A DNA stretch of 64,000 nucleotides from Octopus vulgaris. Taxonomy: Eukaryota. The notes below the pieces were generated by a model, which saw only the letters and a list, made by a program, of their open reading frames with translations, ran no database searches and was not told where the DNA came from. The stretch is taken from positions 69,936,001 through 70,000,000 of the forward strand of contig OX597816.1 of the NCBI GenBank assembly GCA_951406725.2, in the 5' to 3' direction. The position numbers and the translations under genes were made by a program. This document shows positions 4,004-44,371 of this stretch, in pieces. Positions within the stretch are counted from its first letter, which is position 1. Every line of letters starts with the position of its first letter.

Positions 4004-7000
4004 ATTATAATATTATTATAATGTATATATATATATATATAATGTATAGAAAGATAGAGAGAAAGATAGGGAAAAAGAAAGAGAGAGAAATACACACACA
4101 TATGTATATATACGTATACATATATTTATACGTTTACCCTCCCTCATCGTTTGTCATTCACTGATAGACGTTCGGTGGAACGTTGAAAATTTCATATAAA
4201 AAGTTTATTTTTTTCTATTTTTATCATGTTAAATTTTTTTTTTTAGTTTTCTTTTCTAAATTAAATTTTATATTGCTAACATCAAAATAAATGTTTTAAC
4301 ATATATATATATATATATTCAGTAGAAATACGCCATTCAATCTTAAATCAATATCTTACAGATTTTCCATTGTAGGTGTATACATTACAGTGCAGAAAAC
4401 GAAATTTCTAGAAGAAATCCAGTTGAAAAATCAGTAGTTTTCCTACATCAAAGAAAGTTTAAAATGAATATTGAATCCAAACAGTCTAAAATGAAATACG
4501 CTCGGACTTTGCACAACAGAAGATACACTTATAGAATATGATTTAATTTGAATAAATTATATTAGATGGATATGATTGGGAAAGATTTCGTCTGAGCTAC
4601 ACTTTTGACAACTAATTTAACAATTTCGATATTTTATGTTATTTTAATTGGAAAGCTGGAACACGAAAGAGAATTTAAATAGTTACATTATTAATTAAAT
4701 ATATATTTTATATTTCACACAGTCTTACTCCTTCATATTTCCCTATCCCTCTCTTTCCTCTCTCTCTCTCTCTCTCTCTCTCTCTCTCATTCAGTCACAG
4801 AAATACAAAAATATATATTTACACACATAAATGAATACGTATATATATATATATATATATATATATATATAAATGTGTGTGTGTGTGTGTGTGTGTTATT
4901 ATTATTATTTTTTTTTTGAGGGAATAAAATCCAAACTTACAAGGAAAAAGAATTCAATTTAGAAATACCAAATCAAATTCCACACAATATAATATATATA
5001 AAATATTAGAAAAAAGCCACCTTTTATGAATTCAAAATGAATAATTAAATTACACCATCTAGAAAATTACATATAATAGAAAAGTTGAAATTAAAATAAC
5101 AATAAAAAGTAAAGATTAAGTAAATTACAAAAATAATATAATGTATATAATATATATACATGTGTGAGTGTCTGTGTGCACTTTATGCTCTTACACAAAA
5201 GCTCATACACATGTATGTATGTATATATATATAAATTTATATACATGTATATATATATATATGTATATATGTATATATATGTATATATGTATATATATAT
5301 ATATATATATATATATATATATATATATATATATATATATGTATATGAAAAAAGGTTTGAAAATGCAATTTAAACGATGTTTATTTACTTAACCGGTTTC
5401 ACTCTTTGGTAAAAGATTGTCAAAAGTAACATTGAATATTATGGGTTCAAAAAAAGTTTTTTACATAATTGTCACATTGAATATTATGAATTCAAAAATG
5501 TTTTTTTATACATAATTGTCACATTACATGTATAAATATAGTATAAAAAAGTTCAATAGTGTGATGAGAATATTTGGAAAAATTGGCAGAAAAGAATAAA
5601 ACAAATATATTATTGGAAATTTGGTTGCGTTAATTATTGGTTGTCGCAAATTGTCACATTACATGTATATATATACAGTCTTTGGTAGAAAGGACATGTT
5701 AAAGACATAAGGAAGTGTAATAGTTTGGTGAGAAAGCTTGTAATATTGACAGAGAAAATTAAAATGGATATTTTAGACATCTCAGAATATTTTGAATCGA
5801 AGGCGAGAATTTGTTTTTTACTGACCTGTTTGTTTTAGCAGAAAAGTTGAATTGAGAGAAAAAAAGATATGTACCCAGTTTGGTTTATACTTCCCCTTCA
5901 AGCATCAGTGATTTTGGGGTTATTGGGAGGTGAGTATGCGGGTGTGAATAGATGTGTCCGTGTGCCTGCTGGTCAGACAGCGTCTGTTTGTCACACACAT
6001 ATATACACACACACACAACAACAATACACACACACACATAGTATACAAACACACACCACATACACACAACACACACACACAGAACACACACACACACAAC
6101 GCACCCACATATATAATATATACACACAGCACACAAATATAACATGTATTTATATATAATATACACACATATATAACACATACTCACACAACACACACAC
6201 ACACACACACACACACACAACACACGCACACATATATACATAATATAAATATCACATACAATACACATACACAGCATGTATATAATACACATACACAATA
6301 TATGCATGCAATATACATACGCAATACATACATATAATATATATATATATAGACAATGCATATACATATATACATATATACATATAAATAGTGTTTACAT
6401 ACACATACATAGATATACCACATATACACACAATATACATACATACAATGCATACACATACACGTACGCATACATATAATATATATAGACACACACACAC
6501 ATAACATACATACACAATGCATATATATATATACACGCAACGTATATACATGTATTCATGTATATATAGCACACCTACAATATACATATATACAATGCAC
6601 ACATACACACATATATACACTTAATTGTACACATACATATACAATACACATACATACAATATACATATACACAATGCGCATGCAAATAATGCACATGTTT
6701 ATACACACATATACATGAAAATATATATACACACACACATATATATATATACACATATATATATATATATACATATACATACATACATACATGCACATAC
6801 ATATATTTTTTCACACACATACACACACATATATATATAAAATTCACACACACACCCACACACACAAAATACAAACCTATTGCGTACACACTCAAATATA
6901 TCTCTACATACCGCACACACACACAAACAATGTACTCACATATACACACATACCATGCATATACACACACAACACACACACATATATATATATATAAAAA

Positions 7001-7424
7001 CAAATACACATGTAAATACATACACACGTACACAATGCTGACACACACACACACACATACACACACACACGCACACAGTGCACACACACACACACATATA
7101 TACACACGTGCACACACACACACAACGCGCGCACACACACACACATACACACACGCACACAGTGCACACACACACACACATACATATACACACGCGCACA
7201 CACACACACAACGTGCACACTCACACACACACACACAACACTCACACACATACATAACCTACATATATATAATGCATGCGTGTGCGTGCCACGTATGTGT
7301 GCGGTCAGTGCCCGCTAGTGTGTCCTATGCGTGCCGATGCGCGCATGTGCCCGCCCGCACGATATGCTGTGAGTGTGCGCGTGCCCCTGTGTGCCTTGCT
7401 CTGGATGTGTGCCCAGGGGGTATG

Positions 7425-8150
7425 TTAGAGTATGTTTAGTTGTGGTCTGTATTTTTGAATAAGATTACTTTCCTTATTTATTCGTGTTTGGTCTGTGGTG
7501 TTGTCCGAGCATTGGTATAGTGGGAAGACTAAGAATTTGGGGGACTTATTGTGTGCACAAAGGTCTAAGTGTCCACTTAGTGGTATCTGTCTTGTGGAGG
7601 GGTCCCTCAGTTGTTGTCGGTGAACTGTCATTCTTTCTCTGAGGGTAAGGCTCGTTTGCCCTATGTAGTCTTCGTGGCATCCTTCACACCTTATGACGTA
7701 GAGTAAATTTTTTGATGCGCACGTGAAATTATTTTTTATGATGAATGTGTGTCCCGAGTGGAACTTGTACGACGATCCCTCAATGAGGTGGATGCAGGTC
7801 TTGCAATTGGGGCGACCACATTTTTTGATGGTGGGCGGTGGGTTTGTGTTGTGTAATTTTGCGTTGGTGAGGAGGTTTTTTAGGGATTTAGGTTGTCTCT
7901 TACTTTTTATTATTTTATGAGCTGCCAGTATTTTTTTCAGGCGTGGGTCTTGATTTAGTTGTGGAATGTTGTTGTATATAATAGTGTAAGCTTCTGCATT
8001 CCTTGGGTTGTGTGTTGAGAGATAGGGGAGGCTATTTACTGTACTGTGGATGTGTTTGGGTTTTCGTAGGTCTTGAATGTTGATTGATTTGGCCCGTTCT
8101 ATTCCGTTGTCTACTAGTGATGCCGGGTAATGTCTTTCGAGAAGAATTTT
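7425..8150 (-). CDS. 5'-truncated PLE ORF: RT thumb/linker, Cys-rich linker and GIY-YIG endonuclease (~240 codons, no start codon)
   Basis: Manual in-frame extension of ORF 7425-7631 has no stop: ...LLERHYPASLVDNGIERAK...LPYLSTHNP...KRQPKSLKNLLTNAKL...KCGRPNCKTC...FTCASKNLLYVIRCEGCHEDYIGQTSLTLRERMTVHR...KESNLIQKYRPQLNIL*. Contains LLY-YIG motifs, catalytic R, E and terminal LN. Confidence 0.92.
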   Translation of the reverse strand, partial: KILLERHYPASLVDNGIERAKSINIQDLRKPKHIHSTVNSLPYLSTHNPRNAEAYTIIYNNIPQLNQDPRLKKILAAHKIIKSKRQPKSLKNLLTNAKLHNTNPPPTIKKCGRPNCKTCIHLIEGSSYKFHSGHTFIIKNNFTCASKNLLYVIRCEGCHEDYIGQTSLTLRERMTVHRQQLRDPSTRQIPLSGHLDLCAHNKSPKFLVFPLYQCSDNTTDQTRINKESNLIQKYRPQLNIL

Positions 8151-43498: not shown

Positions 43499-43812
43499 GC
43501 AGCGTGGAAAGTGTTTATAAGCCATTTAAGAAACACACAAAAACCGTTAGATTCACTTCAACATTTAAATTTAATTCGCCAAAATATTTTCGTCGTTTTG
43601 AGACCGCGACCTGCAGCACGGAATTTTGTTAGTGAACAGGTCGCGGTCCCAAAGCGACAAAAATATTTTGACAAATTAAATTTAAATGTTGAAATGAATC
43701 TAACGGTTTTTGTGTCTCTTAAATGGTTTATAAACACCTTCCACGCTGCAATTATTTTCGTTCCAGCACGCGATCTCAGATCAGGTCACTTGGTATGAAA
43801 GTATATCTCCGT
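43499..43812 (+). mobile_element. Short PLE-type palindrome, G3-C8 hammerhead family, copy 1 (decayed)
   Basis: Arms 43499-43612 and 43637-43749, tail to 43812; GTGAACA core present but G12 is mutated. Confidence 0.75.
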
Positions 43813-44043
43813 AAATACTTTATTTCCCAATCCAAAAATTCAAGAAGATAAGCCCCTCCAATATATACAAACTTCACAATCACAAAAACTGTAAACCACC
43901 GCAAAACTTTAAAACACAAAAAGAGGAAAAATTTTACAAATCGAAAAAAAAAACAATCCGAGGATTCAAAAGTTCAGCGATGTAAATAAATATATATATA
44001 TATATATATATATATATATATATATATATATATATATATATAT

Positions 44044-44371
44044 ACGGAGATGTACTCGCATAGCAAGTAATTTGATCTGAGATCGTATGCTGAAATGAAA
44101 ACAATTGCAGCGTGGAAGGTGTTTATAAGCCATTTAAGAAACACACAAAAGCCGTTCGATTCACTTCAACATTTAAGTTTAATTTGTCAAAATATTTTCG
44201 TCGCTAAAATCCGCGACCTGTTCACTGTCAGCACGGATTTTTGTCAGTGAACAGGTCGCGGATTTTAGCGACGAAAATATTTTGACAAATTAAACTTAAA
44301 TGTTGAAGTGAATCGAACGGCTTTTGTGTGTTTCTTAAATGGCTTATAAACACCTTCCACGCTGCAATTGT
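44044..44371. mobile_element. Short PLE-type palindrome, G3-C8 hammerhead family, copy 2 (127-bp perfect arms 44101-44227 and 44245-44371; tail 44044-44100)
   Basis: Arms read as exact reverse complements by eye; 17-nt spacer. Confidence 0.85.
44240..44289 (+). ncRNA. Minimal type I hammerhead-like motif, G3-C8 core variant
   Basis: TTTGTCA-GTGAACA-G-GTCGC(GGATTTTA)GCGAC-GAAA-ATAT-T-T-TGACAAA: 7-bp stem I, 5-bp stem II, palindromic stem III. Confidence 0.75.

Follow-up and report, generated by a model that had tools for sequence, protein, structure and literature searches.

A 64,000-nucleotide stretch of the Octopus vulgaris genome (positions 69,936,001-70,000,000 of contig OX597816.1; hereafter the window, whose positions are used below unless a locus is named by an L-number) contains hammerhead motifs of six repeat families, four of which are tied to Penelope-like elements (PLEs). 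The motifs are type I minimal hammerhead folds at the ends of the repeat families, and we consider it likely that they cleave, as predicted from sequence; the base pair between nucleotides 3 and 8 of their core differs between families but remains complementary. The host genome is 2.8 Gb in size and rich in microsatellites, and L-numbers denote genome loci fetched with their flanks for family comparison. The original prediction, made from the window alone, had described six such motifs, and all six heptamer cores are present. We label the families by the window position of nucleotide 3 (N3), which is also how minus-strand motifs were numbered in that prediction: A (11067, plus strand, CUGAAGA), B (17123, minus strand, CUGACGA), C (9597, plus strand, with a second copy at 5423; UUGACAA), D (27173, plus strand, UUGAAAA), E (35937, minus strand, UUGAUAA) and F (44247, plus strand, GUGAACA). 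At each site the order is stem I, core, stem II, GAAA, a short stem III, UH and the stem I partner, as had been described, but the family E copy in the window is decayed, with a predicted stem II pairing probability of 0, and does not fold as drawn; the consensus form of that family is clean, with stem II GAUG/CAUC. Five of the six families are represented in the window more than once, by a copy that is inverted or simply a second one (N3 at 9936, 5423 and 27144 on the minus strand and at 36097 and 43632 on the plus strand), and the coordinates of all features are collected in Table 1.

The variant cores are not mutated copies of a canonical CUGANGA motif, because each is the majority core of its own family across the genome. 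Family-specific patterns that left positions 3 and 8 free returned, across the genome, 7252 sites for family F, with G-C at 3-8 (GUGAACA-type) in 94 of the first 100 listed, and 5582 for family D, with U-A (UUGAAAA) in 92 of the first 100; the canonical family A gave 1869 exact-pattern sites (C-G, CUGAAGA, in 98 of the first 100). The smaller families behave similarly, with C-G (CUGACGA) at 39 of 40 family B sites and U-A (UUGAUAA-type) at 19 of 24 family E sites, and family C, searched through its 3' half, has 890 sites and UUGACAA in all 30 loci read. These counts are lower bounds for the families, since exact matches were required, and the family F count takes in a few older relatives; backward-pattern controls returned between 0 and 2 sites.

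Across families the 3-8 pair stays complementary far above chance. A background sample of 78 evenly spaced 10-kb stretches (780 kb), searched with a descriptor that accepts any N3 and any N8, gave 27 matches of type I minimal topology, with stem II closed and stem I open. Twenty-four are Watson-Crick at 3-8 (20 C-G, 3 U-A and 1 G-C), one is U.G and two are non-complementary, as compared with a background of 25% Watson-Crick among all NUGANNA heptamers of the sample (2299 of 9171); the binomial probability is about 5e-12, although the matches are not fully independent and some share a family. The reversed control, in which the reversed and complemented descriptors form one set on two strands and were counted once, gave only 3 matches, yet all 3 are Watson-Crick, and at a stricter setting four decoy cores gave 0, 0, 0 and 4 matches against 8 for the real core. 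When 194 unique descriptor matches from 1.57 Mb of sequence were grouped into 35 clusters, all 14 multi-copy clusters proved to be Watson-Crick at 3-8 (7 C-G, 6 U-A and 1 G-C); six of these are the families already targeted, and the eight untargeted ones are complementary without exception. The 21 singleton clusters include 17 Watson-Crick, 2 wobble and 2 non-complementary pairs. The proposal that positions 3 and 8 change together is thus borne out as covariation between families, and non-complementary combinations are not as frequent as complementary ones in the sampled genome. Canonical C3-G8 still predominates among the 24 Watson-Crick matches of the genome sample. The related suggestion that this genome hosts diversified non-canonical hammerheads holds in that the variant cores are majority states of their families and a search restricted to CUGANGA misses 7 of the 14 multi-copy clusters, but its novelty was overstated, as U3-A8 is already in print (PMC4209133). 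We also considered whether N17 avoids pairing with N3, an idea prompted by PMC3884650; family F, with U17, agrees with it, but N17 in the U3 clusters (U in 3, C in 1 and A in 2) does not, and the idea is not supported.

The original prediction regarded the elements as otherwise unrelated, which does not hold for families D and F. Their proteins are 47% identical over 169 amino acids, their pseudo-long terminal repeats (pLTRs) align with a score of 49 against a shuffle maximum of 34, and their stems II differ by a compensatory U-A/C-G change; the family A and C proteins are only 22% identical, and the part common to F and C is the endonuclease motif alone. Older members of the D/F lineage emerge from the F-type sites that are changed at both positions 3 and 8, of which 42 were found genome-wide, 19 of them Watson-Crick where 12.2 are expected (p 0.013). 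Among 30 of these loci inspected, 15 represent older relatives in which stems I and II start in the same way, with 3-8 states of 6 C-G, 6 U.G, 1 U-A, 1 A.G and 1 A.A, and the sequence profile of one older group also matches family D copies. One group of older D/F relatives (at about 1490-1560 of L297, L299, L302, L305, L306, L308, L312, L313, L315 and L319) has AGGACU as its stem III. Because D, F and the older families are homologous, C-G, U-A and G-C, and perhaps U.G, occupy homologous positions of a single lineage, and several pair states within one homologous lineage are stronger evidence than the same states in unrelated families. U3.G8 is the commonest state of the older group (5 of 10 loci) and may be a wobble intermediate. 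An alignment of 23 hand-picked rows has 7 UA, 6 CG, 6 GC and 4 UG pairs at 3-8, along with one covarying stem II pair, but its 100% pairing is inflated, having left out L297 and L306 (U.G), L302 (A.G), L312 (A.A) and L011 (A.C); stems I and III were left uncounted in it because D is out of register.

The original prediction also described all of the elements as Penelope-type, and this is sustained for A, C, D and F, in which the hammerhead lies downstream of an open reading frame (ORF) for a reverse transcriptase (RT), a GIY-YIG endonuclease or both, and not for B (17123) and E (35937), for which no ORF was found. In family A, locus L223 has hammerheads at 340 and 3964, as direct repeats 3624 nt apart, with a 767-aa frame containing RT motifs and a GIY-YIG-like frame between them, and L224 is a tandem of three copies; there is no ORF between the two copies of L231. 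Family C loci L134, L137 and L138 contain RT and GIY-YIG frames upstream of or between hammerheads, together with inverted 5' copies, and Pfam identifies RVT_1 in L134 and L138 and GIY-YIG in L137, where direct repeats about 5.8 kb apart flank both domains. Most copies of family F are 5'-truncated ends of about 210 nt, but walking upstream located GIY-YIG about 1 kb from the hammerhead in 7 distinct loci; at L325 a 530-aa frame with RT motifs and a Pfam GIY-YIG match ends about 1.1 kb upstream and matches a PLE profile built here (E 6e-14), with no Pfam match to RVT_1. For family D, a GIY-YIG domain lies upstream in 2 loci, and there is homology to the RT thumb of F. At L227, L228, L231, L262, L263 and L265 no family ORF recurred consistently for D or F, and neither family yielded a complete copy with two pLTRs. 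All four families have two alternative 3' ends or inverted copies, which is typical of PLEs, and copies of each sit in long inverted repeats. CxxC-type linker motifs in C, D and F suggest the Neptune clade of PLEs over Penelope/Poseidon. Family B (window 16900-17330; L109-L133) has identical sequence upstream and downstream of the motif, and the unit of about 500 nt would appear to be non-autonomous and retrozyme-like.

The sequences support type I minimal hammerhead folds in all six families. U4, G5, A6, A9, G12-A13-A14 and the UH site are kept across families, and predicted stem II probabilities are 0.89-1.0 for A, D and F and 0.62-0.93 for B and E, falling to 0.02 for the in-register stem II of a family C monomer. 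Stem I is just 3 bp in families A and D. The 10.1-11.1 pair is G-C in A, D, E and F, with an extra G after A9 in D and F. Stem III is palindromic in every family (ACACGUGU in A, AUCAUAUGAU in B, ACCGGU in C and E, AAUU in D and AAUAUU in F), with predicted duplex energies of -10.3 kcal/mol for A and -8.3 kcal/mol for C and E. A sequence search of the PDB gave no match, and no Rfam hammerhead family is among the 150 of 296 matches listed for the window.

A mechanism can be outlined in which the precursor RNA would fold stems I and II, and the short palindromic stem III would pair between two copies, leading to dimer cleavage between two pLTRs. The element RNA would be cut after nucleotide 17, likely as a dimer or with the help of the element's protein. 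In hammerhead chemistry G12 is the general base and the 2'-OH of residue 8 the general acid (PMC6155905, PMC8495972), and compensatory 3-8 pairs can work because the pair holds residue 8 in place; the pair would position the 2'-OH of that residue, leaving base identity free so long as pairing is kept. Dimers of D and F would need help, as in the protein-assisted Anolis motif, because the energy of their palindrome duplexes is about zero. Selection would have acted on active source elements, most genomic copies now decaying neutrally. Where a copy lies within an inverted duplication, transcription of both arms would produce a long hairpin, and such copies are unlikely to be active.

A number of observations weigh against the interpretation of these motifs as cleaving hammerheads of PLEs with a covarying 3-8 pair. 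The family A ORF has no Pfam match to RT or GIY-YIG and matches our PLE profile weakly (E 8e-4), and there is no consistent family ORF within 1.5-kb flanks for B (25 loci) or E (24 loci). Families B and C have U.U at 10.1-11.1, departing from the usual G-C (one family C copy, L138, has A-U), and the palindrome duplexes of D (0 kcal/mol) and F (-0.2 kcal/mol) are near zero when taken alone. Covariation within family F was rejected: in F proper only 6 of 15 double changes are Watson-Crick, and they are scattered on the tree and define no subfamily, as is expected of dead copies in neutral decay. The older relative group is likewise mixed, with 5 U.G, 2 C-G, 1 U-A, 1 A.A and 1 A.G among its 10 loci. 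Finally, cleavage by the minimal PLE hammerheads already described is poor, dimers included (PMC4209133), and in an Anolis PLE cleavage is dispensable for insertion in vitro (PMC11167929).

The last two points, together with the weak stem III of D and F, are also those that favor the most serious alternative, that selection keeps the fold chiefly because it gives PLE RNA structure or a site for protein binding, that it cleaves hardly or not at all in vivo, and that the 3-8 pair is retained for the sake of shape. In the Anolis work catalytic mutants left insertion unaffected and no reads ended at the cut site, but the motif does cleave once the protein is present (PMC11167929), and a role in shape alone does not sit easily with the retention of the catalytic residues and the UH site across families; we regard this alternative as rather unlikely. 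A second alternative is that the elements can do without the hammerhead and that the variant cores arose as chance founder mutations and were carried to high copy number, their complementarity being coincidental. A single founder per family is possible, so that thousands of copies could amount to one event, G3-C8 is represented by one multi-copy family only, and Naiad PLEs proliferate without canonical hammerheads (PMC8557442). The complementarity of every multi-copy cluster, the untargeted ones included, is nonetheless hard to reconcile with the 25% background, and a change from C-G to G-C takes two transversions, making chance founding an improbable account. A third alternative, that AT-rich sequence and the inverted duplications holding many copies produce the folds artefactually, is highly improbable and largely refuted by the controls; stems I-III are internal to one arm and also occur in solo copies, and the reversed control and three of the decoys gave few or no matches, even though copies of four families lie in long inverted repeats, five C-A matches in cluster F appear to be inverted-duplication artefacts, and 3 of the 4 matches to the decoy core NUGUNNA are Watson-Crick.

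As type I minimal hammerheads, the Octopus motifs belong for the most part to a system already known. In 2014 Cervera and De la Pena described motifs of this type from metazoan PLEs, where they lie in the pLTRs (PMC4209133), with U3-A8 covariation in about 1,300 Schistosoma mansoni matches, a search that included a U3-A8 core, and cores in Fig. S3 that include UUGAUAA, UUGAAAA and UUGAAGA. The Octopus families resemble that set in being type I, with a short stem I, a palindromic or absent stem III, a pLTR location and nearby inverted pairs, and D and F also have its PLE hallmarks of an extra base between A9 and 10.1 and a G10.1-C11.1 pair. They are unlike it, as far as its available sections extend, in having C-G, U-A and G-C in one homologous pLTR lineage, in the U.U at 10.1-11.1 of families B and C, and in G3-C8, which occurs in none of the 56 Fig. 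S3 representatives and in at least about 7,000 sites of family F. Natural U3-A8 hammerheads with a covarying 3-8 pair were also reported by Perreault et al. (2011; PMC3088659), with which Octopus shares natural 3-8 covariation; the available part of that report covers U3-A8 only, outside PLE families. The pLTR hammerhead of the Anolis Poseidon PLE (PAc) depends on the protein of its element, and cleavage is partly rescued there by the C3G/G8C change (PMC11167929); G3-C8, in that work an engineered double mutant, is the natural state of Octopus family F. Family B looks similar to non-LTR (long terminal repeat) retrozymes, which are non-autonomous PLE derivatives (bioRxiv 10.64898/2026.07.22.740005), in its short unit, hammerhead and lack of an ORF.

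We found no natural G3-C8 PLE family in the literature surveyed, which did not extend to the likeliest source of one (Lunse et al. 2017), and the high-copy family with natural G3-C8 described here may be unreported. The possible increment over the known system is that family and the lineage with three pair states, and it is a modest one, given that PLE minimal hammerheads and the U3-A8 swap have been in print since 2014. A bolder reading, which we put forward tentatively and think somewhat doubtful, is that one PLE lineage took its 3-8 pair through C-G, U.G, U-A and G-C, and that a previously unreported natural G3-C8 ribozyme operates in its most abundant family (at least about 7,000 sites). 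If true, this would provide a natural series on which to test the route by which a catalytic base pair changes and the need of PLEs for cleavage. Comparison of the families gives evidence of selection on PLE hammerheads at a tertiary pair important for the active fold, and bears on whether weakly cleaving PLE hammerheads function in vivo; together with its U3-A8 and C3-G8 relatives, the natural high-copy G3-C8 family would be directly usable in cleavage assays.

Table 1. Hammerhead motifs and associated coding fragments in the window.
Feature	Positions	Strand	Core and remarks
Family A hammerhead	11064..11143	+	CUGAAGA (C3-G8); long stem II; palindromic stem III ACACGUGU; predicted cut after A17 at 11140
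Family A hammerhead, inverted, 5'-truncated copy	9860..9939	-	inverted repeat and descriptor match
Family A GIY-YIG-like endonuclease fragment	10182..10385	+	tblastn 88% against L223 ORF; about 680 nt upstream of the 11067 hammerhead
Family B hammerhead	17068..17128	-	CUGACGA (C3-G8); U.U at 10.1-11.1; unit about 500 nt
Family C hammerhead	9591..9635	+	UUGACAA (U3-A8); stem III ACCGGU; predicted cut after U17 at 9629
Family C hammerhead at 3' pLTR, downstream of ORF fragment	5385..5429	-	outward-facing partner of 9591-9635
Family C PLE ORF fragment: CxxC-motif linker and GIY-YIG endonuclease	7428..8144	-	tblastn
Family D hammerhead	27170..27206	+	UUGAAAA (U3-A8); extra G after A9; G10.1-C11.1; minimal stem III
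Family D hammerhead, inverted copy	27111..27147	-	N3 at 27144
Family E hammerhead, decayed copy	35905..35941	-	UUGAUAA (U3-A8)
Family E inverted copy, more decayed	36093..36129	+	A9 position is C
Family F hammerhead	44242..44287	+	GUGAACA (G3-C8); extra G after A9; G10.1-C11.1; stem III AAUAUU; predicted cut after U17 at 44282; in right arm of inverted duplication
Family F second copy, decayed	43627..43673	+	G12 position is A
Hammerhead-like site outside the original prediction	3095..3140	-	N3 at 3135; CUGAGAA; non-complementary C3-A8

The additional hammerhead-like site at 3135 on the minus strand is probably a decayed C3-G8 copy; the two relatives found for it have the cores CUGAUGA and CUGAAGA, both C3-G8. 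The 3' region of family A has two copies of a 100-nt unit (10562-10785), placed after the endonuclease fragment and before the hammerhead. In the family F pLTR (44230-44380), two presumed-RNA runs have 6 and 5 A>G sites as compared with 1 and 1 in the other two, an excess that would fit adenosine-to-inosine editing of inverted-repeat hairpins but may also reflect differences between copies or alleles; no difference of at least 5% is listed at the core positions 44247-44253. Elsewhere in the genome, a family F copy lies just upstream of, and on the opposite strand to, a 182-aa frame (L023:1571-2116), which from its motifs we take to resemble a dCMP deaminase. The window also contains an inverted repeat of 699 nt (47485-48883; 93% complementary, with a 1-nt spacer) and, on the minus strand at 58611-60307, reverse transcriptase fragments of the long interspersed nuclear element type (Pfam RVT_1 and zf-RVT) that have no relation to the hammerheads.

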